From an uncultured Acidobacteriota bacterium (GTDB lineage Bacteria > Acidobacteriota > Vicinamibacteria > Fen-336): DNA of 64,000 nt. Shown here in pieces: positions 2,155 through 22,060 of the stretch; position 1 is the first letter of the stretch, and every line of letters starts with the position of its first letter. Both the position numbers and the translations under genes were made by a program. The stretch is taken from positions 287,082 through 351,081 of the forward strand of contig CAVSPR010000002.1 of NCBI GenBank assembly GCA_963729875.1, written 5' to 3'. Below the pieces are notes generated by a model, which ran no database searches, was not told the DNA's origin, and saw only the letters and a program-made list of their open reading frames with translations.

Positions 2155-2529
2155 ATGCTGAGGAAGATCCTCGCCGTCGACGACTCGGCGCTCATCCACC
2201 AGATGTACAAGCTCTTCCTCTCCCGGTACAAGAACTGCAAGCTCGTCAGTGCGATGAACGGGCTCGAGGCGCTCGACAAGCTCGCCCAGGAGGAAGGCAT
2301 CGACCTCATCCTCCTCGACATCAACATGCCGGTCATGAACGGCCTGGAGTTCCTGCAGCGGGCCCAGAAGGAAGCCGCCTACAAGGACATCCCGGTCATC
2401 ATCATCTCCACCGAGGGCAAGGAAGAGGACACGATCCGGGGCCTCAAGATGGGCGCCCGCGGCTACGTCAAGAAGCCCTTCCAGGCGTCGGAGCTGCACA
2501 GCCTCATCGAGAAGATCACGGCTCCGTGA
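2155..2529 (+). CDS. cheY: CheY-like single-domain response regulator
   Basis: In-frame ATG at 2155 (SD ggggagagggga) within ORF 2083..2529. MLRKILAVDDSALIHQM...LILLDINMPVMNGLEFL...GARGYVKKPF shows the receiver DD/D/K signature. Confidence 0.93.
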   Translation: MLRKILAVDDSALIHQMYKLFLSRYKNCKLVSAMNGLEALDKLAQEEGIDLILLDINMPVMNGLEFLQRAQKEAAYKDIPVIIISTEGKEEDTIRGLKMGARGYVKKPFQASELHSLIEKITAP

Positions 2530-2557
2530 GCCCCTTCGGTCCGCCCGGCTCGCGCTG

Positions 2558-4240: not shown

Positions 4241-4244
4241 GGCC

Positions 4245-5072
4245 GTGTACGAGCGCTACTGGGGGCTGCGCGAGAAGCCGTTCCGCAAGACCCCCGACCC
4301 CCGCTACCTCTTCCTCAGCGAGACCCACGAGGAGGCCCTCGAGCGGCTGCTCTTCGCGGTGGAGGAGATGGACCTCGCTCTGCTGACCGGGGAGGTGGGC
4401 TCGGGGAAGACGCTGCTCACCCGGGCGCTCGCCGACCGCCTCGGCGACCGCTACGAGGTGGGGATGATCCTGAACCCCCGCCTGTCGCCGCGGCAGTTCC
4501 TGAAGACGGTGGCGGGGGAGCTCGGGGTCGAGGAGCCCCGCTACCAATCGAACGACCTCCTCGAGCAGATCCACGACCGCCTCCTCGCCCTCGACGGGCA
4601 GGGCCGGGCCGCGCTCGTCGTCGTGGACGAGGCACACCTCATCCCCGGCAAGCCCACCTTCGAGGAGATCCGCCTCCTCACGAACTTCCAGCTCGACGAC
4701 CGCAACCTGGTGGCCATCGTCCTCGTGGGCCAGCCGGAGCTGCGCGAGAGGCTCCGCCACCGCGCCTACCGGGCCCTCACCCAGCGGATCGGGGTCTCGT
4801 TCGAGATCGCGCCGCTCGGCGTCGAGGACACCCGGGGCTACCTGGCGCACCGTCTGGCGGTGGCGGGTGCCGGGCGCGAGCTGTTCACGGCCGAGGCGGT
4901 CGCCCGGCTGCACGCCGCGGCCGGGGGCATCCCGCGGGTGCTGAACCACCTCGCGACCCAGGCGCTGGTCGAGGGCATGGCCCGCGGGGCGAGCCGGGTG
5001 GACGGGGCGGTGGCGGAGGCGGTGGCCGCCGAGCGCGAGTTCGAGAGCGCCCCCGCGGGGGCGCGAGGGTAG
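4245..5072 (+). CDS. ExeA/GspA-like AAA ATPase (AAA_22 type) embedded in the che operon
   Basis: ORF 4212..5072. GTG 4245 gives VYERYWGLREKPFRKTPDPRYLFLSETHEEAL..., the typical ExeA/MshM N-terminus. Walker A GEVGSGKT and Walker B VVVDEAH are present. Confidence 0.85.
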   Translation: MYERYWGLREKPFRKTPDPRYLFLSETHEEALERLLFAVEEMDLALLTGEVGSGKTLLTRALADRLGDRYEVGMILNPRLSPRQFLKTVAGELGVEEPRYQSNDLLEQIHDRLLALDGQGRAALVVVDEAHLIPGKPTFEEIRLLTNFQLDDRNLVAIVLVGQPELRERLRHRAYRALTQRIGVSFEIAPLGVEDTRGYLAHRLAVAGAGRELFTAEAVARLHAAAGGIPRVLNHLATQALVEGMARGASRVDGAVAEAVAAEREFESAPAGARG

Positions 5073-5078
5073 GGAATC

Positions 5079-5920
5079 ATGGGTCGAATGGCCGACGCAC
5101 GGAAGAGGGCCCGGCGGGGCGAGACGGCCGCGGGAGCGGATCCGCCGGCCCCGGCGCCAGCGGAGCCGGTCTTCGCCGAAGAGCCGGCGGTGGGTCCGCG
5201 GATGGCCGCTCCCCCCGCGGCCGGCCGGGTATCGCTCCCGGCGTCGGGCCTCGCCGAAGACATCCTGCGGCAGGTCGAGGCGGGGCCGGCGCTCGAGCCG
5301 GCTCCCGGCCCGCTCGCCCCGGAGCGGATCGAGCTGCCCGCGTCGGGCCTCGCCGAGGACGTGCTCGCCGCCGCGGAGCCGGCGTCCGGCCACAGCCTCT
5401 CCTTCTTCGCCGCCCCCGCGCAGGAGCAGCGGGCGGCGGCGGAGGCCACGGAGCACCTCGCCACGTTCTTCCTCGACCGGGAGGAGTACGGGGTGGACGT
5501 GCGGCAGGTCCAGGAGATCCGGCGGATGAGCGAGATCACGGGCGTGCCCCGCGCCCCCGACTTCGTCCGCGGCGTCATCAACCTGCGCGGCCGCATCCTG
5601 CCGGTGCTCGACCTCAAGCGGAAGCTGGGCCTGGGCGAGGTCGAGGCCTCCCGCGCCACCCGCATCGTGGTCGTCCGGGTGAAGGAGAGGCTGCTCGGCC
5701 TGCTCGTGGACGGGGCATCGCAGGTGCTGAAGGTCGAGGTCTCGCGCATCGAGCCTCCCCGGAGGAGGTCGTGGAAAGAGGCGGCGACTACATCCGGGGC
5801 GTCGCCAAGCTGGAAGACCGGCTGATCATCCTCGTCGACCTCGAGCGGCTGCTCGCGCACGAGCTGCGGGCGGCCGGCGCGCCCGCCCGCGCCGCCGAGG
5901 GACCGGACGGGGTCTCGTAG
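5079..5920 (+). CDS. cheW: CheW-like coupling protein with ~125-aa Ala/Pro-rich N-terminal extension; frame broken by 1-nt indel
   Basis: ORF 5079..5825 carries the CheW core ([20 protein letters not shown]...[19 protein letters not shown]...[12 protein letters not shown]). After the C4 run 5757..5760 the adjacent frame reads [36 protein letters not shown]..., the canonical CheW C-terminus, with a stop at 5918..5920. The N-terminus contains the direct repeat LPASGLAED(I/V)L twice. Confidence 0.85.
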
Positions 5921-5932
5921 GGAGAGTCCACG

Positions 5933-8217
5933 ATGGCCATCAACACCAAGTCGATCCGGGCGAGGTTCCTCGCCCTGCTCACGCTCACCGCCGTGGTGAT
6001 CACGGCCGTCTCCGTGATCTACGACCTCGTGGCCGGCGGGGCGGCCATCCGCGACCAGATCGAGAAGCGGGGGCGCTACGTCGCGAGCAACCTCGCCTTC
6101 AACGCCAAGTACGGCGTCCTCACCGAGGACAAGCCGCTGCTCACACAGTTCCTGGAGGGGGCGTCGGCGTCGGGCGGCGAGGGCGAGCGCTCCGACGTCG
6201 TGGGGGCGATGATCCGCGACGCCAAGGGCGCCATGCTCGCCCAGACCGGCAAGGCCATCCGCGACCTCCCCGGGGGACCCCCGGCCGCGCTCGAGGAGCG
6301 CGAGGCCCTCACGACCGATGGCGAGCGCGTGCTGCTCTTCCGCGCGCCGGTGACGAGCTCGAGCGGCGGCTCCGCGATGGGCGAGGAGCTCGGCGCCGCC
6401 CCCCCGCCTCCGAGGCGGTCAAGGGCGGGGTCGAGGTGGCGATCTCCCAGACCGCGCTGCGGGACGTGCAGCGCCGGCGCGTCCTCGAGGCCCTGCTGCT
6501 CGCGGCAGTGGCGATCGGCGTCGGCTTCCTGATCGGCTCGGCGGTGATCAGTCGCTGGCTGAGCCCGCTGCAGCATATGGTGCTCGCCTCGGGCTCGGTG
6601 GCCAAGGGCGACCTCATGGTCAATCTGGACGCCCAGGGCGAGGACGAGGTCGGGACGCTCGGCCGCAGCCTCAACGAGATGGTGGGCAACCTCCGCCGGG
6701 TGGTCGACAACATCCAGGACGCCTCGGTGCAGGTCGCCTCCTCCGCCGGGCAGATCTCGGCGAACGCGCGCCTCATCATGCAGGGGGCGCAGGGGCAGGC
6801 CCAGGCCGCGGAGGAGACCTCCACCTCCATGGAGGAGATGGCCGCCTCGATCCAGACGGTGGCGGGAAGCGCGCAGGGCCTCGCCAGCTACGTGGAGGAG
6901 ACCTCCAGCTCCATCACCGAGATGGGGGCCTCGATCGAGCAGGTGGCCCGCTCGGGAGGGACGCTCGCCCAGACCGTGACCGAGGCCTCGGCCACCATCG
7001 AGGAGATGACGGTGTCGATCGACCAGATGGCGCGCGACCTCGAGAGCCTGGCCGGCACCGTCAACGAGACGACGTCCACCGTCGAGGAGATGGCCACGTT
7101 CATCGCCTCGGTGGCCCAGAACGCCGAGTCCCTCGGCGAGGCGGCGTCTCGCGCGAGCGCCACCGTGTCCGGCATGGCCGGTGCCGTGAACGACGTGGCC
7201 AAGATCGCCTCCGAGGCCGACCGCATCAGCGCCCGCGCCTCCGAGGACGCGCGGTCGGGGGGCGAGGCGGTCTCCCGGACCGTGGACGGCATGAAGGCCA
7301 TCTCGGAGAACATGGAGAACACCGCGCGCGTCATCACCGGCCTCGGCAAGCGCTCGCAGGAGATCGGGCGCATCCTCGAGGTCATCGAGGAGATCGCGGA
7401 CCAGACGAACCTCCTCGCCCTCAACGCCGCCATCGAGGCGGCCCGCGCGGGGGAGGCGGGACGCGGCTTCGCGGTCGTGGCCGACGAGGTGCGCAAGCTG
7501 GCCGAGCGGTCGGTGGAGGCGGCCAAGGAGATCGGCGAGGTCGTGGGCAAGGTGCAGCAGGAGACGACCGACGCGGTGGACGTGGCCCGCGCGGGCGCCT
7601 CGGAGGCCAAGCAGGGCATCACGCTCGCCGACAAGGCGGGAGCGGCCCTGCGGAACATCATCGACTCGGTCTCCCGCTCGAGCGCGCTCATGGGCCAGAT
7701 CGCGGACGCGACCTCGAAGCAGTCGCAGGCCTCGTCCGAGGTGCTCGACACGGTCAGCCACATGAACACGGCCACCGCGCAGGTCACGCAGGCCGTGCGG
7801 GAGCAGGCCGAGGGCAGCAAGCAGATCCGGGCGGCCATGGAGAACATCAAGAAGGTCATGTCCCAGGCCGCCTACTCGACCCGCGAGCAGGCGGCGGGCG
7901 GGCGGCAGGTCCGCCTCGCCGTCGAGAACATCAACAAGATCGCCTCCCAGGTCGGGGTGGCCACCCGCGAGCAGGCCGAGGGCAGCCGGCAGATCATCAA
8001 CGCGGTCGAGCGCATGAACGACATGACCCAGCAGGTCTCCCACGCCACCGCCGAGCAGAAGAAGGGCGGCGAGCTGGTGGTGAAGGCCATGGAGAACATC
8101 TCGGAGATCGCCCGCGACAACCTCGCCACCGTGCAGGAGATGTCGAAGGCGACGGCCAACCTCGCCCAGCAGGCGGAGAACCTGGCGCGGCTGGTGTCGG
8201 TCTTTAAGGTCCAATGA
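5933..8217 (+). CDS. methyl-accepting chemotaxis protein (TM-sensor-TM-HAMP-long signalling domain); frame broken by 1-nt indel
   Basis: ORF 5933..6532 gives the N-terminal TM plus periplasmic part. ORF 6436..8217 gives TM2, HAMP and the MCP signalling domain ([41 protein letters not shown]). The two frames meet at the C7 run 6399..6405. One extra C joins them (...[20 protein letters not shown]...). Confidence 0.88.
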
Positions 8218-8240
8218 CGCACCTCCCGGAGTCTCTCGCT

Positions 8241-8275
8241 CCCCGGGGAGTTCCAGGCGAGCGAACTCCCCGGGG
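8241..8275 (+). repeat. stem-loop H1 (13-bp perfect stem, 9-nt loop) just after the MCP stop
   Basis: ccccggggagttc (8241..8253) / caggcgagc / gaactccccgggg (8263..8275). Confidence 0.6.
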
Positions 8276-8336
8276 CTGCAATCTCGATCGAGTCGGCTTG
8301 GTGAGGCTCTGATGAAAGCCCACGCTCTCCCGAAAG

Positions 8337-8371
8337 CCCCGAGGAGCTCGCCGGGTTGGAGCTCCTCGGGG
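8337..8371 (+). repeat. stem-loop H2 (13-bp perfect stem, 9-nt loop), related to H1, covering the HEAT gene start
   Basis: ccccgaggagctc (8337..8349) / gccgggttg / gagctcctcgggg (8359..8371). Same architecture as H1, with two compensated arm differences. Confidence 0.6.
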
Positions 8372-10719
8372 TGAGTTTCCCGATCCACGCCGAGGAGCCC
8401 GCCCGGCGCCGCGCCGTCGCCGACCTCGCGGCCTCCGGCCGTCCCGAGGCGATCGCCCCGCTCCTCGTCGCGGTGGGGGACGAGAGCTGGTCGGTGCGGC
8501 AGGCGGCGGTGGAAGCCCTCGCCGCCTTCCCCCCCGCGGCCCTTCTCCCCGCCCTCGAGGCCGCCCTGCGCGACGGCGACGACGCCGGCTCGCGCAACGC
8601 GGCGATGGAGATCTACGTCCGGCTCGGCTCCTCCGCCAAAGCGCCGCTGCTCGCCCTGCTGCGCGACCCCGACGAGGAGGTCCGACTCTTCGCCGCGGTG
8701 ATGCTCGGCTCGCTGGGGGAGACGGGCGCGGTCCACGCGCTCACCTCCGCCCTCGACGACCCCGACATGAACGTGCGCCACGCCGCGGCGGCCAGCCTGG
8801 GCCAGATCCGCTCCCCCGAGGCCGTCCCCCGCCTCGTCGAGGCGCTTCACGCCGAGCCCTGGCTCCAGTACCCCGCCCTCCACGCCCTCGGCGAGATCGG
8901 CGACCCGCGGGCCGCCCCGGCGCTGCTCGAGCTGCTCGGGGATCCCATGCTGCGCGCGCCCGCCCTCGAGGCCCTCGGGCGGCTGGCCGGCCGCGACGCC
9001 CTCGCGCGGATCGCCCCGCACCTCCTGGACGGCGACCCCGCGATGCGCAACGCGGCGATCCGGGCGGTGGTGGAGATCGAGCAGAGGGCGACCGCATCCG
9101 GGGATAGCCTGGACCCCCAGGTGCAGGCCGCGCTCAGGGACGAGGACCTCGTCGCCCACCTCGTCGGCATGCTGGCCGACGAGGACCCCCGCAACCGCCG
9201 GACCGCGGCCGTCACCCTCGGCTGGCTGCGCGAGGCGAGGGCCACCGCACCGCTGCTCGACCTCCTCGGCGACGGCGCGGTGCGCGAGTTCGCGAGCCAC
9301 GCGCTCGTCTCGATCGGCTTCCGGCAGCGTGCCGACTGGGAGCGGGGCCTCGCCCACCCGGACGACGCGGTGCGCCTCGGCGCCGTGCGCTGTCTCGCCT
9401 GGATCGCGCCGCCCGAGGGCACCGCTCTCGTGGCCCCCCTCGTCCACGACCCGTCGGCCGAGGTACGGGCGGAGGCAGCGGCCGCCATCGGCCGCCTCGG
9501 CGACGAGGACGCGCCCATGCTGCTCTTCGAGCTGCTGGGCGACGAGAGCGAGCTCATCCAGGAGAGCGCGATGGACGCGCTGTCGCGGATGAGCCCCGGG
9601 CGGGTCAGGCCGCTCCTCGTACAGGCCCTGACCGGCGCCGACCCCGAGGCCCAGGTCCGCGCCGCGCAGACGCTCGGCCTCCTGCGGGACCCGGAGGCCT
9701 CGCCCGCCCTCGTGGCGGCGGCACGGGACGGGCGCGAGGCGGTCCGGGCCGCGGCCCTCCAGGCCCTCGGGGAGACCGGGGGCCCCGGCGTCCTCGAGGT
9801 CCTGCGCTCCGCGCTGTCCGACACCAGCTCGGTCGTGCGGCAGCAGGCCGTGCTCGCCCTCGGTAGGCTGCGCGATCCGGAGGCGGCCCCCCTGCTGCTG
9901 CCGCTCCTCCGCGAGGAGGACCCCCGCCTCCGCTTCGCGGCGGTCCGGGCTCTCGGCCAGATGCGCAACGCCGAGGCGGTCGAGCACCTGCTGCCGCTCG
10001 TCGGAGAGCCGCGCAAGGAGCTGCGCTTTGCCGCAGTGGAGGCGCTCGGCCAGATCCGCGCGCCCTCCGCCGTGCGCCCGCTGGTGGAGGTGCTGCGCGA
10101 CCCCGACCGGAACCTCCGTCGCGCGGCCGCGGAGGGCCTCGGCGAGATCGGCGATCCGCAGTCGGCGGTGGCCCTCCTGGTCGCGCTCGACGACGAGCAC
10201 TGGAGCGTGCGCTGCGCCGTCGCCGCCGCGCTCGGGCGCATCGGGAGCCGGAAGGCGGTGCCGGCCCTCGCCGCGCGCGTGGAGGACCCGGACGCCACGG
10301 TGCGCCGCGCCGCGGTCTTCGCCCTCGGGGAGATCGGCGACCCCCGGGCGGCCGGGCACCTCGTCGGCACCCTCGCCGATCCCGGGCTGCAGTCGGCCGC
10401 CCTCGAGGCCCTGCGCCGCCTGGGGCCCGGGGCGCTCCCCGAGATGGAGCGTGCTTTCGCGGGCGGCACGCTCGGGGCCGATGAGCGGCGCCTCCTGGTC
10501 GACCTCGCCGGCCGGATCGAGGACCCCTCCGCCCGGCGCCTCCTCCTCGCCGCCCTCGATGACCCGACCCCGGGCGTCCGCGCCGAGGCGGCGGCCGTCC
10601 TCGGGGAAGGGGGCTTCCGGGAGGCCCTCCGACCCCTCCTCGAGATGAAGGAGGGCGACCCCTCTCCCGAGGTCCGCCGGGCCGCCGCCTACGCCCTGCG
10701 GAAGCTGCAGCCCCGGTGA
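8356..10719 (+). CDS. HEAT-repeat (PBS-lyase type) protein, ~25 tandem repeats
   Basis: 787 aa made almost entirely of ~31-aa repeats (D.D..VR..AA.ALG.IGDP.A...L...L). The start is uncertain: TTG 8356 or GTG 8371. The stop overlaps the cheR start (GTGA). Confidence 0.88.
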   Translation: MELLGVSFPIHAEEPARRRAVADLAASGRPEAIAPLLVAVGDESWSVRQAAVEALAAFPPAALLPALEAALRDGDDAGSRNAAMEIYVRLGSSAKAPLLALLRDPDEEVRLFAAVMLGSLGETGAVHALTSALDDPDMNVRHAAAASLGQIRSPEAVPRLVEALHAEPWLQYPALHALGEIGDPRAAPALLELLGDPMLRAPALEALGRLAGRDALARIAPHLLDGDPAMRNAAIRAVVEIEQRATASGDSLDPQVQAALRDEDLVAHLVGMLADEDPRNRRTAAVTLGWLREARATAPLLDLLGDGAVREFASHALVSIGFRQRADWERGLAHPDDAVRLGAVRCLAWIAPPEGTALVAPLVHDPSAEVRAEAAAAIGRLGDEDAPMLLFELLGDESELIQESAMDALSRMSPGRVRPLLVQALTGADPEAQVRAAQTLGLLRDPEASPALVAAARDGREAVRAAALQALGETGGPGVLEVLRSALSDTSSVVRQQAVLALGRLRDPEAAPLLLPLLREEDPRLRFAAVRALGQMRNAEAVEHLLPLVGEPRKELRFAAVEALGQIRAPSAVRPLVEVLRDPDRNLRRAAAEGLGEIGDPQSAVALLVALDDEHWSVRCAVAAALGRIGSRKAVPALAARVEDPDATVRRAAVFALGEIGDPRAAGHLVGTLADPGLQSAALEALRRLGPGALPEMERAFAGGTLGADERRLLVDLAGRIEDPSARRLLLAALDDPTPGVRAEAAAVLGEGGFREALRPLLEMKEGDPSPEVRRAAAYALRKLQPR

Positions 10720-11588
10720 AGTACGCCCACGTCGACCACGACGCCGAGCTCTCCGAGGAGGAGTTCCGCCTTCTCCGCGACTTCGTCCACGAGCGCTTCG
10801 GCCTCTACTTCGACGAGTCGCAGCGCGCCAGCCTGCGCAGCCGCCTCGCCCCGCGCCTCGCTCTGCTCGGCCTCGTCTCCTTCGAGGACTACTACCGCTA
10901 CCTGCGCTTCGCCCCCGAGCGAGCCGACGAGCAGCAGCGCATGGTGAGCCACCTCACCAACAACGAGACCTACTTCTTCCGCGAGCAGCCGCAGCTCAAC
11001 GTCTTCTCCGGCCACGTGCTCAAGGCGATCAAGGACCGCAAGGCGAGGAACGACGAGAAGCGGCTCCACGTCCTCTCCGCCGGCTGCTCGACGGGCGAGG
11101 AGCCGCTCACCCTGGGCATGATCCTCTTCGACAGCGGCCAGTTCTTCTGGGGCTGGGACGTGCGGGTGACCGGCCTCGACGTGGACGGGGCCGCCCTCGA
11201 CAAGGCCCGGCGGGGCGTCTACCACCAGAACTCGCTCCGGGCGGTGCAGCCCACCGTCCTCGAGCGGCACTTCGCGAAGGAGGACGGCGGGGTCCGGGTG
11301 AAGGACGGGCCCCGCAAGGCCGTCTCCTTCCGGGCGGGCAACCTCCTCGACCCCGCGAGCTACCGGGGGCTCGCGCCTCTCGACGTGGTGTTCTGCCGCA
11401 ACGTGCTGATCTACTTCTCGGACGGGGCCGTCCAGCGGGCGGTGGGCCTCTTCCACGAGGCGCTGGCCCCCGGCGGCTACCTCTTCCTCGGCCACGCGGA
11501 GTCGCTCGCGCGCGTGTCGAGCCCCTTCGTCCCGATACGCTTCCAGGGAGCCATCGTGTACCAGAAGCCGGAGGAGAGCCGAGCATGA
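10716..11588 (+). CDS. cheR: chemotaxis protein methyltransferase CheR
   Basis: 290 aa. CheR N-terminal helical domain plus SAM-binding fold (ETYFFRE, VLSAGCSTGEEPLTLGM, VFCRNVLIYF). Confidence 0.93.
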   Translation: MKYAHVDHDAELSEEEFRLLRDFVHERFGLYFDESQRASLRSRLAPRLALLGLVSFEDYYRYLRFAPERADEQQRMVSHLTNNETYFFREQPQLNVFSGHVLKAIKDRKARNDEKRLHVLSAGCSTGEEPLTLGMILFDSGQFFWGWDVRVTGLDVDGAALDKARRGVYHQNSLRAVQPTVLERHFAKEDGGVRVKDGPRKAVSFRAGNLLDPASYRGLAPLDVVFCRNVLIYFSDGAVQRAVGLFHEALAPGGYLFLGHAESLARVSSPFVPIRFQGAIVYQKPEESRA

Positions 11589-12607
11589 GCGGTCGCATCC
11601 GCGTCCTCGTGGTGGACGACTCGGCGTTCGTGCGCAAGGCCATCGAGCGCATGCTGGGCTCGGTGGACGACATCGAGGTCGTGGGCTTCGCCGCCGACGG
11701 CGAGGAGGGCCTCGCGAAGGCCCGCGAGCTGCGCCCCGACGTCGTGACCCTCGACGTCAAGATGCCGCGACTCGGGGGCCTCGAGACCCTCGAGCGGCTC
11801 ATGGCCGAGCAGCCGGTGCCCGTCCTCCTCATGTCCACCCTCACCCAGGAGGGGGCGGAGGTGACGCTGCGCGGGCTCGAGCTCGGGGCCATGGACTTCG
11901 TGGACAAGTCGTCAGTGCAGCCCATGAGCATGCTGAGCCTCGCCGAGGAGCTGGTGGCGAAGGTCCGCGCGCTCGGCCGGGCGCGGGTCCGGGCCCGGCC
12001 GATGCCGGAGCGGGCCCACGCGGCGGAGGCGGCGGCGGCGCCCGCCGAGTGCGTGGTGATCGCGGCCTCGACCGGGGGGCCGACCGCCCTGCAGGCGGTG
12101 GTCGGCGGCCTTACCGCCGGGTTCGGCGCCGCCGTGATCGTGGTCCAGCACATCCCGCGGGGCTTCACGAAGTCGCTCGCGGAGCGGCTCGACGCGCGCA
12201 GCGCGATCCCCGTGCGCGAGGCACGGGACGGAGAGACCGTCGCGCCCGGCGCCGTGCTCGTCGCCCCGGCCGGCATCCACACGAAGCTCGCCCGCCGCCG
12301 GGGCGGCGTCGAGATCGTGTTGGACGAGGAGCCGCGCGACGCCCTGCACCGTCCCTCCGCGGACGTGCTGATGGCCGCGGCGGCCGAGGTCTACGGCCCG
12401 CTGGCGGTGGGGGTCGTGCTGACCGGCATGGGCGCGGACGGGACCGAGGGCCTGCGGGCGATCCGGGAGAAGGGGGGCCTCACGCTGGCGGAGAGCGAGG
12501 AGACCTGCGTGATCTACGGGATGCCGAAAGCCGCGGTCGAGGCGGGCGTCGTCCACCGCGTGGTCCCGCTCGACCGCGTGGCCGGGGAGATCCTGGCCGC
12601 GGTGTAG
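11585..12607 (+). CDS. cheB: protein-glutamate methylesterase/response regulator CheB
   Basis: 340 aa. Receiver domain (RVLVVDDSAFVRK, DVVTLDVKMPRLGG) plus methylesterase domain (IAASTGGPTAL, VVQHIP, GMGADG). ATGA overlap with cheR. Confidence 0.94.
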   Translation: MSGRIRVLVVDDSAFVRKAIERMLGSVDDIEVVGFAADGEEGLAKARELRPDVVTLDVKMPRLGGLETLERLMAEQPVPVLLMSTLTQEGAEVTLRGLELGAMDFVDKSSVQPMSMLSLAEELVAKVRALGRARVRARPMPERAHAAEAAAAPAECVVIAASTGGPTALQAVVGGLTAGFGAAVIVVQHIPRGFTKSLAERLDARSAIPVREARDGETVAPGAVLVAPAGIHTKLARRRGGVEIVLDEEPRDALHRPSADVLMAAAAEVYGPLAVGVVLTGMGADGTEGLRAIREKGGLTLAESEETCVIYGMPKAAVEAGVVHRVVPLDRVAGEILAAV

Positions 12608-14366: not shown

Positions 14367-14388
14367 AATCCTCCCGAGGTCTTTGCCC

Positions 14389-15198
14389 ATGTCCACTGAC
14401 GAGCTGTCCCGCAAGGGCCAGGACATCCTGCAGATCGTCTCCAAGGCCAAGGAGTTCACCGAGGAGCTCCTCAAGGAGAACGAGCGGCTGCGCTTCAGGA
14501 TCGCCTCGCTCGAGGCGTCGGGCGGGGCCCAGGGCGCCGACGAGCGGGTGCAGGCGCTGCAGAAGCGGGTCCGGGAGCTCGAGGAGAGGCTGGCGGAGAT
14601 CGAGGCGCGCTTCCGCAAGGTCGAGGAGGAGAACAAGGAGTTCGCCGACCGCTACATCGAGATCGAGGAGCAGAACAACAACCTGGCCAACCTGTACGTG
14701 GCCTCCTACCAGCTCCACTCGACGCTCGACTTCAAGGAGGTCGTGCGGATCGTCCAGGAGATCGTCATCAACCTCATCGGTGCCGAGGTCTTCCACGTCC
14801 TCATCGTGAGCGAGAAGACGGGGCAGCTCGAGGTCGAGGCCTCCGAGGGGCAGGCCCCGGGGCGCACCACGATCCCCATCGGCGACGGCGTCATCGGCCA
14901 GGCCGCAAAGAGCGGCGAGAACTTCTTCGCCGACTCGGTGGCGCGGAAGGACCCCTCGCCCTTCGAGGAGCCGATCGCGGTCATCCCCCTCAAGATCAAG
15001 GACTCGACGATCGGGGTCATCTCGATCAACAAGCTCCTCGTCCAGAAGGCGGAGTTCACCTCGATGGACTACGAGCTGTTCACGCTCCTCGCCGGCCACG
15101 CCGCGACCGCCGTCTTCTCCGCCAAGCTCTACTCGGCCTCCGCCCGGAAGCTCTCGACCCTGCAGGGCTTCCTGGACATGCTCAAGCAGCAGAAGTGA
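14389..15198 (+). CDS. coiled-coil + GAF domain protein
   Basis: ORF 14383..15198; ATG at 14389. The N-terminal ~100 aa have heptad-rich coiled-coil character (LEERLAEIEARFRKVEEENKEF). The C-terminal part is a GAF domain (LDFKEVVRIVQEIV...IPIGDGVIGQAAKSGE...IGVISINKL). Confidence 0.85.
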   Translation: MSTDELSRKGQDILQIVSKAKEFTEELLKENERLRFRIASLEASGGAQGADERVQALQKRVRELEERLAEIEARFRKVEEENKEFADRYIEIEEQNNNLANLYVASYQLHSTLDFKEVVRIVQEIVINLIGAEVFHVLIVSEKTGQLEVEASEGQAPGRTTIPIGDGVIGQAAKSGENFFADSVARKDPSPFEEPIAVIPLKIKDSTIGVISINKLLVQKAEFTSMDYELFTLLAGHAATAVFSAKLYSASARKLSTLQGFLDMLKQQK

Positions 15199-15243: not shown

Positions 15244-15534
15244 GTGAGAGCGGTTGGCGTCAAGGTGCTGAAGAACAAGCTCAGCGAGTACGTGCGCCTC
15301 GCGCAGGGCGGGGAGACCGTTCTCGTGACCGACCGGGACCGGGTCGTCGCCGAGCTGGGGCCGCCCCGACCAGGGCGGGCGCCCTCCCTGGGGGACGCGC
15401 TTCTCGCCGAGGCGGTACGCGAGGGATGGATGACCGCCCCGCTGATGGTGGCCGAGGGACCGCCACCGCGGCAGCCCGTGGCGAGCTGGGACGAGCTCGC
15501 TCGCGAGCTCGACGGGGACCGCGGGGACCGGTGA
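15244..15534 (+). CDS. type II antitoxin, Phd/YefM-like (VapB role)
   Basis: 96 aa. MRAVGVKVLKNKLSEYVRLAQGGETVLVTDRDRVVAEL is a typical Phd-type antitoxin N-terminus. 4-nt GTGA overlap with the PIN toxin gene. Confidence 0.85.
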   Translation: MRAVGVKVLKNKLSEYVRLAQGGETVLVTDRDRVVAELGPPRPGRAPSLGDALLAEAVREGWMTAPLMVAEGPPPRQPVASWDELARELDGDRGDR

Positions 15535-15917
15535 TCTACCTCGACACGTCGGTCGCGCTCGCCCACCTGCTCGCCGAGGATCGGCGGCCGCCCGACCGCC
15601 TGTGGGCGCAGCCGCTCGTCTCCAGCCGGCTTCTCGAGTACGAGCTGTGGACCCGGCTCAACGCGCGTCGCCTCGGGGCCTCTCACGGCGAGGCCGCGCG
15701 CCGGCTCGTGGAGAGGCTCGCCATCCTGGAGATGCTGCCGAACGTCCTGGCCCGTGCGGTCGAGCCCTTCCCCGTGCCGGTGCGGACGCTCGACGCGCTG
15801 CACCTCGCGTCGGTCGCGTTCCTGCAGGGGCGCGGTCAGGACGTTCAGCTCGCGAGCTACGACGACAAGCTGCTCGCGGCGGCGCGGTCTCTCGATATCC
15901 CGATCGCGCCGCTCTGA
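15531..15917 (+). CDS. vapC: PIN-domain ribonuclease toxin VapC
   Basis: GTG 15531 in the frame of ORF 15426..15917. VIYLDTSVALAHLL...LEYELWTRL...RTLDALHLASV...LASYDDKL shows the conserved acidic PIN residues (D, E, D, D). Confidence 0.88.
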   Translation: MIYLDTSVALAHLLAEDRRPPDRLWAQPLVSSRLLEYELWTRLNARRLGASHGEAARRLVERLAILEMLPNVLARAVEPFPVPVRTLDALHLASVAFLQGRGQDVQLASYDDKLLAAARSLDIPIAPL

Positions 15918-15966
15918 CCCGTCTCGCGAGAGACCCGGCGCCCTCTCGGCTCCTGCCGGCTCCCCC

Positions 15967-15993
15967 TATAATCGAAGGAGGAGGTTCCTCCTC
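15967..15993 (+). promoter_or_regulatory. perfect TATAAT box followed by an SD embedded in a palindrome, upstream of the AAA ATPase gene
   Basis: TATAAT at 15967..15972. aaGGAGGAGGttCCTCCTC-ATG: the SD and its exact complement form a potential RBS-sequestering hairpin immediately before ATG 15994. No good -35 seen. Confidence 0.35.
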
Positions 15994-17511
15994 ATGTCCA
16001 TGCCCCGCACCCTGGGAGAGCTGAAGGTGCCCCGTCCCCAGGAGCCCTGGCCCTCCGGCCAGGACAAGCCCTGGCCCTCCGGCCAGGACAGGCGCGTCTC
16101 CGTGAAGGAGGAGATGCGTCGCAACCTGCTGCGCAAGCTCGAGGCCCGCGACACGATCTTCCCCGGCATCGTCGGCTACGACGACTCGGTCGTGCCCCAG
16201 ATCGTGAACGCCGTGCTCTCGAAGCACAACATGATCCTGCTCGGCCTGCGGGGGCAGGCGAAGAGCCGCATCCTGCGGAGCCTGACGAGCCTGCTCGACG
16301 AGGCGACGCCGATGGTGGCGGGCTGCGAGATCAACGACGACCCCTTCCGGCCGCTGTGCAAGCGCTGCCGCGACCTCGTGGCCGAGAAGGGCGACGCGAC
16401 GCCCGTGGCCTGGCTCACGCCGGACCGGCGCTACGTCGAGAAGCTCGCCACCCCCGACGTCACGATCGCCGACATCATCGGCGATATCGACCCGATCCGC
16501 GCCGCTCGAGGCGGCTTCGACCTCGCGAGCGAGCTGACCATGCACTACGGCCTGCTGCCGCGGGCCCACCGGGGGATCTTCGCCCTGAACGAGCTGCCCG
16601 ACCTCGCCGGGCGCATCCAGGTGGGCCTCTTCAACATCCTCCAGGAGGGGGACGTGCAGATCAAGGGCTACCCGGTGCGGCTGCCCATCGACGTCTGCAT
16701 GGTCTTCACCGCGAACCCCGAGGACTACACCGCCCGCGGCAAGATCATCACGCCCCTCAAGGACCGCATCGGCAGCGAGATCCGCACCCACTACCCGACC
16801 ACGATCGAGCACGGCGTCGCGATCACCGCCCAGGAGGCGTGGACCGACCGGCGAAAGGACCTCGTGGTGCCCCGCTACGTGCGCGAGGTGGTCGAGGGCG
16901 TCGCCTTCGCCGCCCGCCGGGACAAGAAGATCGACCGGCGGAGCGGCGTCTCCCAGCGCCTGCCCATCTCCGCCCTCGAGAACGCGATCAGCAACGCGGA
17001 GAGGCGCGCGCTGCTCGCCGGCGAGACGCCGATCGTCCCCCGCATCTCCGACATCTACGCCGCCCTGCCCTCGCTCACGGGGAAGTTCGAGCTCGAGTAC
17101 GAGGGCGAGCTGCTGGGCGCGGAGAACGTGGCCCGCGAGCTCATCCGCGAGGCGGTGGGCGAGGTGTTCTCGACGTACCTGGGCACCGTCCATTTCCGCC
17201 AGGTCGTCCGCTTCTTCGAGGAGGGCGGCACCCTGCGGATACGCGAGGGCTCCTCGTCGGAGGAGGTCCTCGCCCAGCTCCAGCGCGTGCCGGAGGCGCT
17301 CGAGCACACGGAGGCGCTCGGGGTGAACCCGGGCGACCCCGCGCCCCTGGTCGCGGCGGCGGGGGAGTTCGTGCTGGAGGGTCTCTGGGCCCAGAAGAAG
17401 ATCGGCCGCAGCGACGACCGCGGCTTCGTGGCCCCGGAGCGCAAGGGCGACGTCGAGCTCGACCTCGAGCGGCTCGAGCGGCTGCGCAAGCTGAAGAAGC
17501 AAGTGAACTGA
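15994..17511 (+). CDS. ChlI/MoxR-like AAA+ ATPase (magnesium-chelatase-I-like)
   Basis: ATG 15994 in ORF 15754..17511. FPGIVGYDDSVVPQIVNAVLSKHNMILLGLRGQAKSR (Walker A-like), GIFALNELPDL (Walker B-like) and the arginine-finger region LKDRIGSEI. Partnered with a vWA gene. Confidence 0.85.
   Translation: MSMPRTLGELKVPRPQEPWPSGQDKPWPSGQDRRVSVKEEMRRNLLRKLEARDTIFPGIVGYDDSVVPQIVNAVLSKHNMILLGLRGQAKSRILRSLTSLLDEATPMVAGCEINDDPFRPLCKRCRDLVAEKGDATPVAWLTPDRRYVEKLATPDVTIADIIGDIDPIRAARGGFDLASELTMHYGLLPRAHRGIFALNELPDLAGRIQVGLFNILQEGDVQIKGYPVRLPIDVCMVFTANPEDYTARGKIITPLKDRIGSEIRTHYPTTIEHGVAITAQEAWTDRRKDLVVPRYVREVVEGVAFAARRDKKIDRRSGVSQRLPISALENAISNAERRALLAGETPIVPRISDIYAALPSLTGKFELEYEGELLGAENVARELIREAVGEVFSTYLGTVHFRQVVRFFEEGGTLRIREGSSSEEVLAQLQRVPEALEHTEALGVNPGDPAPLVAAAGEFVLEGLWAQKKIGRSDDRGFVAPERKGDVELDLERLERLRKLKKQVN
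16045..16092 (+). repeat. 24-bp tandem duplication (2 copies, 1 mismatch) inside the AAA ATPase N-terminus
   Basis: ccctggccctccggccaggacaag / ccctggccctccggccaggacagg, encoding PWPSGQDK-PWPSGQDR. Confidence 0.9.
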
Positions 17512-18731
17512 TGGCGGTCATCCGCTACCACCGGTACGTAGGCGAGCTCTGGGACGACCTGAACCTGGAGGAGCTCGTCGACGAGCTCTCCGACTTCTTC
17601 CTGGAGAGCGGCTTCGGCCGCGAGATGGAGGACTGGGGCGGGGACGACCTCCAGGCCCTGCACGACGCGATCCTCGAGGCGCTGCTCCGGCGGGGACTTC
17701 TCTCGCCCGACGATCTCGAGAAGCTCATGGCCGACCAGGAGGCCCTCGACCAGTTCCTGCAGAAGACGGTCGAGCGTCTCCTCCGGGAGGGTTACCTCCG
17801 GACGAGCGAGGCCCAGCCCTTCAACGACCCCACGGGTGGGGGCGGGCACGGCCCCGAAGGTCCGCCGGTCAGGTTCGAGCTCACCGAGAAGACCGTCGAC
17901 TTTCTCGGGTACCGGTCGCTGCGCGACCTGCTGGGCTCGGTGGGGAAGGCCTCGTTCGGCCGCCACGACACCCGGGACCTCGCCACCGGGATCGAGGCGT
18001 CGGGCCCCTCCAAGGACTGGGAGTTCGGGGACACGATGAACCTCGACGTCTCCGGGACGCTGCTCAACGCCCTCGCGCGCGAGGGGCTCCAGATCCCGCT
18101 CGACGTCGACTACAGGGACCTCCAGGTCCGCCAGTCCGAGTACCAGTCCTCCTGCGCGACCGTGGTCCTCCTCGACTGCTCGCACAGCATGATCCTCTAC
18201 GGCGAGGACCGCTTCACCCCAGCCAAGAAGGTCGCCCTCGCCCTCTCGCACCTGCTGCGCACGCAGTACCCCGGGGACAGCCTGCACCTCGTCCTCTTCC
18301 ACGACTCGGCGGAGGAGGTGCCGATCTCGCAGCTCGCCCGGGTGCGGGTGGGGCCGCACTACACGAACACCCGCGAGGGGCTGCGCCTCGCCCAGCGGAT
18401 CCTGGCGCGCCAGCGCAAGGACATGAAGCAGATCGTGATGATCACCGACGGCAAGCCGTCGGCCCTCACCGAGCCCGACGGGCGGATCTACCGCAACCCC
18501 TTCGGCCTCGACGCCCGCGTCGTCGCCCTCACCCTGAAGGAGGTCGCGAACTGCCGCCGGCAGGGCATACTCATCAACACGTTCATGCTCGCGCGCGACC
18601 GCGAGCTGGTGGCGTTCGTCAAGAAAGTGAGCGAGATGTGCCGGGGCAAGGCCTACTTCACGAGCCCGTGGAGCCTCGGCCAGTACGTCCTGATGGACTA
18701 CCTCAACAAGAAGGTGAAGAAGGTCCACTGA
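17511..18731 (+). CDS. CoxE-like von Willebrand factor A (vWA) domain protein
   Basis: ATG 17511 overlaps the ATPase stop (TGATG), in the frame of ORF 16356..18731. [22 protein letters not shown]... MIDAS-type block [18 protein letters not shown]...[11 protein letters not shown]...ITDGKPSA. Confidence 0.85.
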
Positions 18732-18732
18732 C

Positions 18733-19080
18733 ATGAAGAAGATCGACTGGCGGTACAACCGGCCCGGCTGAACGACCTGCGGCAAGGCGCAGGGGTTCCT
18801 TGCGCAGAAGAAGGTCGACACGGTCGAGCTGGTGGACGCGAAGAAGACGCGGCTGGGGCTGAAGGACGCGCTCGAGATGCTGAAGGGGGCCGACGTGCTC
18901 ATCGCCGCCCGGGGGAAGAAGGTCGAGCGGCTCGACCTCAAGGCGGAGAGACCCGACAAGGCCACGGTCGAGCGGCTGATGCTGGGCCCGACGGGAAACC
19001 TGCGCGCGCCGACCCTGCGCGTGGGCCGCACGCTCCTCGTCGGATTCGACGAGGAGACGTACCGGAAGGTGCTCGGCTAG
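18733..19080 (+). CDS. ArsC/Spx/YffB-fold protein with in-frame TGA at codon 13 (candidate UxxC selenoprotein; alternatively a pseudogene)
   Basis: The ORF track only shows 18832..19080. The same frame extends back to ATG 18733 and is interrupted only by TGA 18769..18771: MKKIDWRYNRPG-[TGA]-TTCGKAQGFLAQKKVDTVELVDAKKTRLG... The TGA sits where this family has the first Cys of its N-terminal CxxC/CxxS redox motif. Confidence 0.55.
18777..18807 (+). other. putative bacterial SECIS-like stem-loop downstream of TGA 18769
   Basis: Two alternative folds. Either 18787..18805, gcgcaggg-gtt-ccttgcgc (8 bp including one G-U, G-first apical loop, starting 16 nt after the TGA). Or the longer 18777..18807, ctgcg(g)caagg / ccttgcgcag (10 bp with one bulged G). 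Confidence 0.4.
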
Positions 19081-20213
19081 GCCGGCGCCTCGACGGCGGC
19101 GCGAAGCGCGCGGACGTTCGCGGGCGGCGCACCCGGGGGAACCGAGCAGGCGGTCGACAGGACGTAGCCCCCGCCGGGGGCGGCAATCTCGATCCGGCGG
19201 CGCGCGTCCGCGAGGACGGCCTCCGCGGTGCCGAGGAGCACCGTCCCCACGGGGTCCACGTTGCCCTTGAGGAAGAGCCGGCCGCCCACGCGCGCCTTCG
19301 CGTCGGCGAGCTCCACGTCGCCGAGGGGCGGAGGGTCGAGGGTGTCGATCCCGTCCGTGCCCGTCTCCGCGAGGAGCTCCAGCCGGTCGCCGAGCACGCC
19401 GCACGTGTGCGTGTAGACCGGCGTCCGGGGGCACCGGACCTTGAAGGCGGCGATCACCCGGGACTCGCAGGGCAGGACGAACTCGCGGTAGTGGCGGGTG
19501 GAGATGAGGCCGCCGCCCGCGTAGGCGCTCGAGACGAGCACGGCGTCGGCCCCGGCTGCGACGTGGCCGGCCATGAGCGCGACCGTCCCGTCGCACAGCG
19601 CCTCGAGGCAAGCCCTCACCCGCGCCGGGTCCGCCCTCAGGGCCATCATCGCCTCGTCTGTCCCCACCGCCTCGCACAGCTGGCTGAACGGCGAGAAGAC
19701 CTCGCCATGGACGCTCGTGTCCGGGGCCTTCTCCCGCACGCGGCGCAGCGTGTCCCCGTGCCACGCGGGGAACGCGGACCACTCCCACTCGAGGCCGAAG
19801 AGGCCGTGTGGCTCCAGGTAGAAGAGCCGGTCGGGATCGAGGGCTTCGAGGCGGAGGAGAGGGCGCGTCCTCCGGTCCGCGAGGAACACGTGCGGGTTGT
19901 CGTCGGGCGGGCAGACGGTGACGAGCCCGTTCCTCCAGACGACGTGCCGGTCGCGATCCGCGGTCTCCACGCGCACGATCTCGTCCCGCCAGCCCGGGTC
20001 CCGCCCCGGGAGGTTCACGAGGATGCCGTCGAACCCGTAGGCCTGTTGCAGGCGCACCAGCGCCTCGGCGAAGGCCTCGCCGTCGTGCCAGACGTCCACC
20101 GGGTCGAGGCCCGCGTGGAGGAAGTAGTGGCCGAGCGCGAGCTGGCACATCACCGGCACGCGGTCGGGGACCCCGCGCCGCATCGCGACGGCCATCCGCT
20201 CGCGGGCGTTCAC
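19077..20213 (-). CDS. uroporphyrinogen decarboxylase (URO-D) family protein, MtaA/CmuA-like
   Basis: ORF 19077..20336. Likely start is GTG 20213 (GTGA overlap with the GH3 stop) or ATG 20195. URO-D-fold blocks ...DRVPVMCQLALGH..., HTCGVLGDRLELLAETGTDGIDTLDPP, GGGYVLSTACSVPPGAP. Confidence 0.8.
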   Translation of the reverse strand: MNARERMAVAMRRGVPDRVPVMCQLALGHYFLHAGLDPVDVWHDGEAFAEALVRLQQAYGFDGILVNLPGRDPGWRDEIVRVETADRDRHVVWRNGLVTVCPPDDNPHVFLADRRTRPLLRLEALDPDRLFYLEPHGLFGLEWEWSAFPAWHGDTLRRVREKAPDTSVHGEVFSPFSQLCEAVGTDEAMMALRADPARVRACLEALCDGTVALMAGHVAAGADAVLVSSAYAGGGLISTRHYREFVLPCESRVIAAFKVRCPRTPVYTHTCGVLGDRLELLAETGTDGIDTLDPPPLGDVELADAKARVGGRLFLKGNVDPVGTVLLGTAEAVLADARRRIEIAAPGGGYVLSTACSVPPGAPPANVRALRAAVEAPA

Positions 20214-22060
20214 TTCGGCGGGGCGGAGGCGATCGGAGCGCCCGGGGCAACCGCGGCGCGCTCGAGGCCGTGTCCGGCGGGGAAGAGGCCGGGGATCGTG
20301 ACCGGCAGCTTGCCGCCGATCGGTGCCTCGCCGCACAAGGCCCGGACGACGGCTGCCTCCGGGGCGTCGCCCCAGTCGTAGGCGAGGAGCACCGCCGGCA
20401 CCTTCGGGGCGAGATCCCCGACGTAGGGGCTGCCGAAAGCGGCGACGGTGAGCGGCCGCTTCGGGTCGGCGGCGAGCTGCTCGAGCAGCGACAGCTGCGC
20501 CGGCGCGAGCCCCATCCGCCCGCTGCCCGAGGCGATCCGCACGTACGTCGCCGCCACCACCGCGTCGTGCCCCTTCGCCAGGGCCCGCAGCAGGTCCAGC
20601 TCGGCCGCGGTCGTGCGGTCCGACACCTCCACGGCGGTGACGCTGCCGAAGCGCTTCTTGAGCTCCGGGATGAAGACGCGGCCGGGCGCGCCCTCCCGCC
20701 AGCCGCTCGCGTAGTCGACGACCGACAGCACGAGGACGCGGGCGCCCGAGGGCAGCCGCAACGGCACCTGGCCGCGGTCGTCCTTCAGCAGCGTGATCGC
20801 CTTCGCGGCGACCTCGGCGGCCACCGCCTCGCGGGCCCGCCCGCCCAGACCGGACGGTACCGCCTCCACGTCGACGGTCCGCGTCCGCTGCAGGCCGAGG
20901 CGCGCCTTCGCCCGCAGGATGCGAACGACCGACCGGTCGAGCTGCTCCCGGGAGATCTCGCCTCTTTCGACCGCCTCGCGGATGCCGCGCACTGAGGCCT
21001 CGGCGTCGGGAGGGTCGAGGACGATGTCGGCCCCCGCCCCGACCGCCATTGCCGCCGCCCGGTCGGCCGGGAAGCCCTTGACGATCGCCCCCATCGACAT
21101 CGAGTCCGTGAACACGAGGCCGTCGAAGGCCAGCTCCTGGCGCAGCAGGCCGGTGAGAATGGGCCGGGAGAGCGTCGCCGGAAGCCCCTCCGTCGGGTCG
21201 AGGGCGGGCAGGCGGATGTGGGTCGACATCACGGCGTCGACGCCGGCCCCGATCGCGGCCTCGAAGGGGACGAGCTCGACCGCGTCGAGCCGCGAGCGTG
21301 GATGCTCGATCACGGCGAGGCCGATGTGGGTGTCGATCGCGGTGTCGCCGTGGCCGGGGAAGTGCTTGGCCGTGGACAGCATCCCGCCGGCCTGGATGCC
21401 CTTCATGTAGGCGACGGCCATCCGCCCCACGAAGGCCGGGTCCTCGCCGAAGGAGCGGAGGTTGATGATCGGGTTCGCCGGGTTGTTGTTGACGTCCACC
21501 ACCGGGTAGAAGTCCACGTGGACGCCGAGGGCCCGTCCCTCGCCGGCGGTGAGGCGGCCCGCGCGCTCGGCCAGCCCTTCCTCACGCGCCGCGCCGAGGG
21601 CCATGGCCCGGGGGTACCGCGTCGCCCCCTCCACGATGTAGCCCGCCCCGCCCTCGAAGTCGGCGGTGAAGAGAAGCGGGAAAAGGGAGGCGCGCTGGAG
21701 GCGGTTGAGGAGCGCCGCGATCGCCAGCGCGTCGCCCCGGGTCGCCCGCCCTCCCGAGGTCCCGTAGACCGGGTTCAGGAGCACGGGCGGCAGCGACTCC
21801 CCCCCGCCGAAGACGTGGAAGCCCCCGACGCCGAGGCGCACGAGCCGCTCGAGCTTCTCGGCGGCGTCGCTGTCGTTCGGCGTGTAGACGCCGTTGAGGC
21901 CGGGCACGACGAGCTGCGCCGCCTTCTGCCCGAGCGTCATCTTCGCGAGAGTCTTCCGGACCCAGGACTCGACTTTCTTGTCCGGCTCCGGGGGCGCGGC
22001 GAGGAGGGTGGCGGCGGCGAGCGCGGCGGCGGGAGCGAGGAGGAGAGCGGTCTTGCGCAT
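20210..22060 (-). CDS. glycoside hydrolase family 3 (NagZ/BglX-like), secreted
   Basis: ATG 22060 within ORF 20210..22708. Signal peptide MRKTALLLAPAAALAAATLLAAPP. GH3 motifs FTADFEGG, NPIINLRSFGEDP, KHFPGHGDT. The upstream part of the ORF is Arg/Pro-rich read-through. Confidence 0.9.
   Translation of the reverse strand: MRKTALLLAPAAALAAATLLAAPPEPDKKVESWVRKTLAKMTLGQKAAQLVVPGLNGVYTPNDSDAAEKLERLVRLGVGGFHVFGGGESLPPVLLNPVYGTSGGRATRGDALAIAALLNRLQRASLFPLLFTADFEGGAGYIVEGATRYPRAMALGAAREEGLAERAGRLTAGEGRALGVHVDFYPVVDVNNNPANPIINLRSFGEDPAFVGRMAVAYMKGIQAGGMLSTAKHFPGHGDTAIDTHIGLAVIEHPRSRLDAVELVPFEAAIGAGVDAVMSTHIRLPALDPTEGLPATLSRPILTGLLRQELAFDGLVFTDSMSMGAIVKGFPADRAAAMAVGAGADIVLDPPDAEASVRGIREAVERGEISREQLDRSVVRILRAKARLGLQRTRTVDVEAVPSGLGGRAREAVAAEVAAKAITLLKDDRGQVPLRLPSGARVLVLSVVDYASGWREGAPGRVFIPELKKRFGSVTAVEVSDRTTAAELDLLRALAKGHDAVVAATYVRIASGSGRMGLAPAQLSLLEQLAADPKRPLTVAAFGSPYVGDLAPKVPAVLLAYDWGDAPEAAVVRALCGEAPIGGKLPVTIPGLFPAGHGLERAAVAPGAPIASAPPK

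Follow-up and report, generated by a model that had tools for sequence, protein, structure and literature searches.

Selenoproteins related to ArsC have been catalogued repeatedly. A UxxS type (U, selenocysteine (Sec)) was reported from the Sargasso Sea (PMC1088965), further ArsC-like selenoproteins were reported from genomes (PMC1794560), and the 2008 Global Ocean Sampling (GOS) study by Zhang & Gladyshev listed 'Arsenate reductase 2, cd03032, UxxC' with 42 Sec sequences and 238 Cys homologues (PMC2398784). A 2026 review equates this GOS entry with the UxxC family NF041106 under the name 'Arsenate reductase-like protein' (PMC13188914). Here we analyze a gene at positions 18733..19080 on the + strand of a 64,000-nucleotide (nt) stretch of contig CAVSPR010000002.1 (hereafter the window), from an uncultured Acidobacteriota bacterium. 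The gene carries an in-frame TGA, and an initial annotation had put it forward as a candidate UxxC selenoprotein of the ArsC/Spx fold, noting, in agreement with these four sources (PMC1088965, PMC2398784, PMC1794560 and PMC13188914), that ArsC-like selenoproteins had been predicted before. Our analysis makes it highly probable that 18733..19080 encodes an NF041106 thioredoxin-fold selenoprotein, in which UGA codon 13 is decoded as Sec with a hairpin at 18787-18805 acting as the Sec insertion sequence (SECIS). The gene has the following features:

18733..19080, + strand: complete predicted selenoprotein gene of 115 codons (ATG at 18733, putative Sec-TGA at 18769-71, stop TAG at 19078-80), identified by NF041106, Pfam ArsC and the phase of third-position GC content (GC3).
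18733..18768, + strand: the 12 codons 5' of the TGA (MKKIDWRYNRPG), missed by gene callers and predicted to form the first β-strand and the pre-active-site loop.
18769..18771, + strand: in-frame TGA, very probably read as Sec (residue 13), the first residue of the U-T-T-C redox motif.
18778..18780, + strand: TGC for Cys16, the putative resolving Cys of UxxC; an invariant column that aligns with Spx Cys13.
18787..18805, + strand: predicted bacterial SECIS hairpin with an 8-bp stem (18787-94 with 18798-805) and the apical loop GUU (18795-97).
18985..19011, + strand: GPTGNLRAP, the most conserved protein motif of the subfamily, with G85, P86, G88, L90, R91, A92 and P93 invariant.

Translation of the 115-codon frame gives MKKIDWRYNRPG*TTCGKAQGFLAQKK..., and, as the initial annotation had described, the frame is open back to the ATG at 18733 with the TGA at 18769..18771 as its sole interruption. 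The same annotation had pointed out that the mechanical list of open reading frames (ORFs) offers only a GTG-started 82-amino-acid (aa) ORF in this frame (18832..19080), which is the case, and had anticipated that standard gene callers would truncate the gene; most database homologues are indeed truncated calls of 77-102 aa. An exact look-up of the 82-aa fragment in a protein collection returned no record. In a phase-resolved profile, the GC3 signal (~0.96) moves into the frame of the selenoprotein gene at ~18730 and changes again, to a minus-strand frame, at ~19080. The upstream gene has its own TGA stop at 18729..18731, separated from the ATG by a single base. Of the 43 gene ends predicted in the window, 31 have TGA as the stop, among them that of this upstream gene, and UGA is thus not reassigned genome-wide; recoding would be specific to the site at codon 13. 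The codon following the TGA is ACG in the window, so that a restart of translation at that point is impossible.

To compare the locus with its relatives, we scanned genomes, keeping one per species, and obtained 80 loci. These were the top hits for a Sec-form query and hence make up a sample biased to the Sec clade; Cys forms were studied apart from them. The loci come mainly from Acidobacteriota, Planctomycetota, Entotheonella and Obscuribacterales, the nearest being metagenome-assembled genomes (MAGs) of Vicinamibacteria at 85-90% identity; CAZLRF01, JBGPQQ01 and CAVTBK01 are close MAGs in which the locus is also present. The Sec column holds TGA in 80/80 of them, across several phyla, which rules out both a sequencing error and a nonsense mutation confined to one genome. 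The codons upstream of the TGA, compared in 77 loci, point in the same direction: Tyr(-5) and Arg(-3) are invariant (77/77), and Trp(-7) and Gly(-1) are each present in 75/77. At Tyr(-5), Arg(-3) and Gly(-1), third codon positions vary with an entropy of 0.97-1.58 bits; Trp has a single codon. Invariant residues with free third positions imply purifying selection on the protein, and hence that translation passes the TGA in frame; from this pattern we infer that the 12-codon upstream peptide is translated.

A protein search returned 2186 matches in three length classes. Homologues of ~82 aa start at the internal GTG, as in the window; those of 102 aa start at the codon immediately after the TGA column; and full-length homologues of 115-122 aa (P0004, P0060, P0076 and others) have G-C-x-x-C, with Cys at the TGA column. 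The proposal that the TGA sits on the first redox Cys, giving UxxC, agrees both with these full-length proteins and with the 80 genomic loci, and the suggested check of an ArsC-family alignment for Cys or Sec in this column, once run, gave GCxxC in the full-length homologues. Two deviating sequences were seen. A protein from a Joint Genome Institute (JGI) metagenome (P0106) has Trp at the Sec/Cys column (GWTSC), so that either TGA has mutated to TGG or the sequence was translated under a code in which TGA means Trp. One Pirellulaceae MAG (L063, L063:6001-6120) keeps the TGA and has a 1-nt frameshift a few codons later, which is either an assembly indel or the mark of a decaying copy.

The hairpin at 18787..18805 starts 15 nt downstream of the UGA, with a UGA-to-loop spacing of 23 nt and a folding energy of -13.3 kcal/mol (z = -4.04; 0/200 dinucleotide shuffles fold as well). 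By the published constraints (PMC13188914), a bacterial SECIS (bSECIS) element has 3-9 nt in the loop, 4-16 bp in the upper stem, 16-37 nt between UGA and loop, a minimum free energy (MFE) of at most -7.5 and, at the first or second loop position, a G that is usually succeeded by G or U. The hairpin lies within all of these bounds (bSECISearch model, PMC13188914 Fig. 2). Rfam models matched nothing credible, SECIS or other, whether applied to the window at the gathering threshold or to 18700-18900 with E values up to 10; given the heterogeneity of bacterial SECIS elements (PMC13188914), this is expected. In an ungapped alignment of 75 distinct sequences, the helix is paired in 87% of cells, compared with at most 66% in slid registers. 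Double-sided compensatory changes occur at 6 of the 8 stem pairs, some of them with amino-acid replacement, and the covariation score is reached by 0/500 shuffles. Several stem columns are at least 90% conserved. The outermost pair (19-37) forms only in a minority of sequences, the window among them, and the core is 7 bp. Four Entotheonella loci (L061, L067, L068 and L071; ~nt 6018-6040 of each) have a hairpin after the TGA that is built from unrelated sequence, GGUUUCCAG GUUU UUGGAGACC. There the register is shifted by one and the loop is the 4-nt GUUU; the encoded peptide differs (KVSRFLE), yet the structure and the G of the loop persist. The hairpin at 18787-18805 is evolutionarily conserved, and the 8-bp stem-loop of bacterial SECIS geometry that the initial annotation had drawn is upheld by both the bSECIS constraints and the covariation.

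Two other folds of the same region were rejected as functional elements. The longer alternative at 18777..18807, which the initial annotation had also considered compatible with SECIS geometry, does exist as the MFE structure of a 44-nt excerpt (z = -1.4) but has no evolutionary support. A competing hairpin, 18776-18781 with 18788-18793 (CCUGCG / CGCAGG; alignment columns 8-13 with 20-25), cannot form together with the SECIS stem; it is paired in 81% of cells and is often preferred by RNAfold in relatives. Neither fold shows covariation, the observed values being reached by 333-500/500 shuffles on every measure. The competing hairpin may arise by chance from the Cys and Gln codons, or it may be an alternative structure with a regulatory role.

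Because the stem lies wholly within codons 19-25, which encode A-Q-G/E-F-L-A, constraint on the RNA has to be distinguished from constraint on the protein. Leu23 is CUU in the window, a codon that accounts for 1.8% of the 1851 Leu codons there, and the stem also contains UUU, which accounts for 1.3% of the Phe codons. Both are rare under strong GC3 bias and are nonetheless kept, which argues that the stem is under current selection in the window genome. Among relatives, CUU occurs at Leu23 in 69/77 Sec forms as against 1/7 Cys forms, and in 13/19 loci with more than 62% GC. The DNA of seven Cys-form homologues could be recovered; with one exception, they use CUG or CUC at this position. Five of the seven lack the helix (2-5 of 7 core pairs; local MFE -1.3 to -5.6), and two, L087 and L085, keep the hairpin. 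The closest Cys relative, L087 (L087:577-927, on a metagenome contig of 71% GC), keeps the hairpin sequence unchanged, rare UUU and CUU codons included, and has the same vWA gene upstream of it. It probably represents a recent Sec-to-Cys change with a fossil SECIS. Taken together, the codon and covariation data argue against conservation of the peptide as the whole cause of the helix.

Family searches, run with the TGA read as Cys, place the protein in NCBIfam NF041106, 'ArsC_rel_Se_1, ArsC family (seleno)protein' (137.3 bits against a cutoff of 85, E = 2.6e-40, model positions 1-107/107), and in Pfam PF03960 ArsC (35.6 bits against a gathering score of 24, residues 8-112), in line with its first assignment to the ArsC/Spx fold. 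Two more specific identities were considered and rejected. A Spx regulator does not fit, the Spx/MgsR models staying below their cutoffs (TIGR01617, 38.9 against 75.05; NF002459, 34.4 against 123). The model scores also speak against a true arsenate reductase: NF008107 'ArsC family reductase' gave 16.6 bits against 121, and TIGR00014 was not among the matches. Context argues against both identities as well. No ars genes (arsR, arsB/acr3 or arsA) are present among the annotated window genes, and no recurrent ars neighbor appears across the 80 loci. The accurate label is an ArsC-like UxxC selenoprotein of unknown substrate.

The closest solved proteins by sequence are Bacillus Spx structures (6GHB and 1Z3E; E = 2.6e-7). 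Sec13 and Cys16 align exactly with Cys10 and Cys13 of the Spx C10xxC13 redox switch in the sequence alignment, which bears out the earlier placement of the TGA at the redox position of the ArsC/Spx/YffB fold, and R-x-P within GPTGNLRAP is matched to RRP in Spx ('GLLRRP'). As a structural proxy, we used an AlphaFold2 model of the closest Cys homologue (P0004, 116 aa, 69% identical to the window protein), predicted with a mean local distance difference test score (pLDDT) of 92.6 and a predicted template modeling score (pTM) of 0.85. Its CxxC lies at the start of helix 15-26, and its first strand (E7-10) falls within the part encoded 5' of the TGA. A Foldseek search of the Protein Data Bank (PDB) with this model returned Spx, YffB (1RW1) and ArsC-related proteins first (probability 1.00; template modeling (TM) score 0.53-0.58). 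Spx and ArsC have a helical subdomain at the central position, where the model instead predicts a β-hairpin (56-61/64-69). By the modeled structure, the protein folds like thioredoxin and has its redox residue where helix 1 begins; the moderate TM scores reflect a divergent central subdomain.

From these data, a working mechanism can be proposed. The UGA at codon 13 would be decoded as Sec during translation, with the hairpin at 18787-18805 recruiting SelB and its Sec-tRNA(Sec) to the ribosome. In the product, U13-T-T-C16 at the predicted N-terminus of helix 1 would occupy the position of the Spx C10xxC13 switch, and the protein would most likely be a small redox protein that cycles between selenol/thiol and selenenylsulfide states. 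Both SelB-dependent decoding in the window organism and this redox chemistry are the most likely interpretation of the comparative sequence data.

Several observations weigh against Sec decoding at this locus or qualify the evidence for it. No selA, selB, selD or tRNA-Sec was found within the 64-kb window: ARAGORN detected no tRNA-Sec in the window or in 60 related loci, Pfam annotation of the ~40 predicted window genes (38 translated ORFs) gave no SelA, SelB or SelD domains, and a six-frame regular-expression search of the window for signature motifs of these three proteins, a search of low power, found none. A scan of the window for other TGA-interrupted coding frames revealed no second selenoprotein gene. 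The large subunit of a [NiFe] hydrogenase in the window, which ends in TGA, was considered as a [NiFeSe] enzyme and rejected, since it has DPCLSCSTH, with Cys and not Sec. The TM scores to Spx and YffB are only 0.53-0.58 and derive from a 69%-identical homologue rather than from the window protein itself. Finally, the hairpins of L087 and L085 mean that the helix could be carried partly by the conserved A-Q-E/G-F-L-A peptide. Neither PMC5029168 nor PMC13326102 mentions a Sec trait in Acidobacteria or Planctomycetes.

These points have to be set against what each competing explanation would require. If the TGA were a genuine stop, the locus would be a decayed or N-terminally truncated ArsC-like gene yielding an 82-aa product from the GTG at 18832, or nothing. 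The 82-aa entry of the ORF list, the annotation of most relatives as 77-102-aa calls and the lack of visible Sec machinery within the window would all fit such a gene, but its product would have neither strand 1 nor helix 1 and would lack UxxC altogether. We regard a genuine stop as exceedingly unlikely, given that the TGA and its 12 preceding codons are conserved in 80 genomes of several phyla with a coding substitution pattern, that the ACG after the TGA precludes a restart there and that a covarying hairpin lies at SECIS distance. An error of sequencing or assembly that turned TGC or TGT into TGA would need a single base, yet the same TGA recurs in 80 independent assemblies together with the SECIS, and this explanation is effectively refuted.

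Translation through the UGA could also insert a residue other than Sec, through a near-cognate Cys or Trp tRNA (for example, after loss of the Sec machinery), with the hairpin as a generic stimulator or a relic. The Trp of P0106, the hairpin retained by the Cys form L087, which shows that presence of the hairpin alone is no proof of Sec, and again the lack of Sec machinery in the 64-kb window are compatible with such read-through. We nevertheless consider it quite improbable: the strict TGA (80/80), with no drift to TGC, TGT or TGG, implies selection for what UGA delivers; the hairpin fits the SelB-type consensus including the loop G-U; and the rare codons that maintain the stem in the window genome place the element under current selection. 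Alternatively, the hairpin could be a by-product of the conserved peptide, with recoding dependent on something else. The location of the stem entirely in codons 19-25 of a conserved helix, its several columns of at least 90% conservation and the two Cys forms in which the same peptide also forms the stem are what one would expect from such a by-product. The compensatory changes at 6/8 pairs, some with amino-acid replacements, are not, nor are the Entotheonella hairpin, formed at the same place from an entirely different sequence, the use of CUU and UUU against the GC3 bias (with CUU in 13/19 high-GC loci) and the Cys forms with F-L at the same positions, whose CUG or CUC codons leave no pairing; a by-product of this kind is very unlikely. 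Sec insertion at codon 13, directed by the hairpin, is the explanation that we prefer.

The gene lies at the end of a series of + strand genes and faces a convergent neighbor. Its annotated neighbors are AAA+, vWA, URO-D and GH3 genes, and the surrounding features are as follows:

14383-15198, + strand: GAF gene.
15426-15917, + strand: PIN gene.
~15922..17511, + strand: AAA+ ATPase gene (Mg-chelatase ChlI / sigma-54 activator-like) preceding the vWA gene, assigned by coding phase and Pfam; start approximate.
~17514..18731, + strand: vWA-domain gene directly upstream of the selenoprotein gene (VWA_2, 35.7 bits; coding phase).
19077..20336, - strand: convergent URO-D family gene at the 3' limit of the unit (URO-D, 145.7 bits; coding phase).

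Genes were assigned by the phase-resolved GC3 profile, GC3-greedy calling being unreliable at 72% GC. Long overlapping ORFs mislead simple ORF tracks at this GC content: the '791-aa vWA ORF' at 16356..18731 is a composite of two frames, with AAA+ coding sequence over ~15922-17511 and vWA coding sequence only from ~17514. The upstream vWA gene of the initial annotation therefore stands, with its stop one base before the ATG, but not at the length of the ORF from which it was named. The vWA and selenoprotein genes are probably co-transcribed or translationally coupled. At the other end, the stops of the selenoprotein gene (TAG, +) and the URO-D gene (TAG, -) overlap in the palindrome CTAG at 19077-19080, which leaves no room for a terminator between the two convergent genes. 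A DUF4388 response regulator gene and the GAF gene lie just upstream of the AAA+/vWA/selenoprotein genes.

Across relatives, linkage to the AAA+/vWA pair is found only in L001, L005, L006 and the Cys form L087, all close relatives. Clustering of flanking ORFs over the 80 loci gave no cross-phylum operon partner, the top clusters being the gene's own antisense shadows. A sulfatase (PF00884) is the one neighbor that recurs, lying within 4 kb and ~1.7 kb upstream in 14/80 loci (L009-L075) from Acidobacteriota and Planctomycetota. Sulfatase paralogues are abundant in the genomes of these 14 loci, and the recurrence is for that reason probably due to chance. One could go further and regard the NF041106 clade as a functionally distinct selenoenzyme that might serve as a dedicated redox partner of an AAA+/vWA machine of the chelatase/MoxR type. 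This idea draws on the predicted β-hairpin subdomain, the invariant GPTGNLRAP, the 1-nt gap to the AAA+/vWA pair and the abutting URO-D gene; Sec forms, moreover, overwhelmingly outnumber Cys forms in Acidobacteriota and Planctomycetota. With the linkage limited to four close relatives and no partner shared across phyla, we consider it doubtful.

Other genes of the window were noted in passing. A second URO-D family gene adjoins a gene for a B12-binding-domain protein (41694-43768, - strand), a pairing like that of corrinoid-dependent methyltransferase systems, and is followed by an O-methyltransferase gene (44942-46450). By analogy with this pair, the URO-D gene beside the selenoprotein gene may encode a methyltransferase rather than HemE. 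The hydrogenase mentioned above belongs to a cluster at 48933-55428 (- strand) that resembles a soluble NAD-linked [NiFe] hydrogenase, with a large subunit, an Oxidored_q6 small subunit, a 2Fe-2S/4Fe-4S subunit and a 1256-aa fusion of Nuo51-type FMN domains with a pyridine-nucleotide-disulfide oxidoreductase domain. Two adjacent large multihaem c-type cytochromes (Cytochrome_C7/c3, MtrC/MtrF-like domains) are encoded at 34322-37755 (+ strand), followed by a Fer4 and pyridine-nucleotide-disulfide oxidoreductase gene (39767-41170). A complete chemotaxis-type cluster occupies 2402-12607 (+ strand), encoding CheA, an AAA_22 protein, CheW, a methyl-accepting chemotaxis protein (MCP), an 804-aa HEAT-repeat protein, CheR and CheB.

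Ordinary gene callers truncate this gene, leaving most database relatives as 77-102-aa fragments without an active site. Once it is recognized, a complete predicted redox protein is restored and the organism can be marked as a probable user of selenium. The comparative data also demonstrate the NF041106 SECIS more cleanly than a single-sequence prediction does. Publication of the family as selenoproteins with a UxxC motif dates from 2008, and an NCBI model encodes these features; the main value of the present analysis lies in the annotation and in the comparative SECIS case.

Compared with proteins of solved structure, the window protein is closest to Spx/MgsR (TIGR01617; PDB 1Z3E and 6GHB), redox-sensing regulators that bind RNA polymerase and the nearest solved structures by sequence and fold, with which it shares R-x-P. 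It is unlike Spx in that the TM score is only ~0.53-0.55, the central subdomain is a predicted β-hairpin (E56-61/E64-69) instead of helices and GPTGNLRAP is specific to the subfamily; there is also no indication that it binds RNA polymerase. YffB (PA3664, PDB 1RW1), the second-best structural match (TM 0.57), and the other uncharacterized ArsC-related proteins 3GKX and 3RDW are likewise small stand-alone proteins of unknown substrate; the sequence similarity of YffB to the window protein is weak (E = 0.033). With the R773-type glutaredoxin-coupled ArsC (TIGR00014) and 'Arsenate reductase 1, UxxS' (PMC1088965, PMC2398784), the protein has in common PF03960 and a redox residue at the N-terminus of helix 1. 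'Arsenate reductase 1' is another Sec-containing form in the same superfamily, but its motif is UxxS/CxxS, whereas that of the window protein is UxxC. The correspondence with NF041106, the GOS 'Arsenate reductase 2', extends to the UxxC motif, the Sec/Cys pairing, a SECIS immediately downstream and a length of ~115 residues. Unlike the first-reported members, which came from marine metagenomes, the window copy belongs to an uncultured, Vicinamibacteria-like Acidobacteriota bacterium, and its relatives are mostly Acidobacteriota and Planctomycetota MAGs. There is no defining difference between the window protein and NF041106, and the gene is a further member of this already catalogued selenoprotein family.

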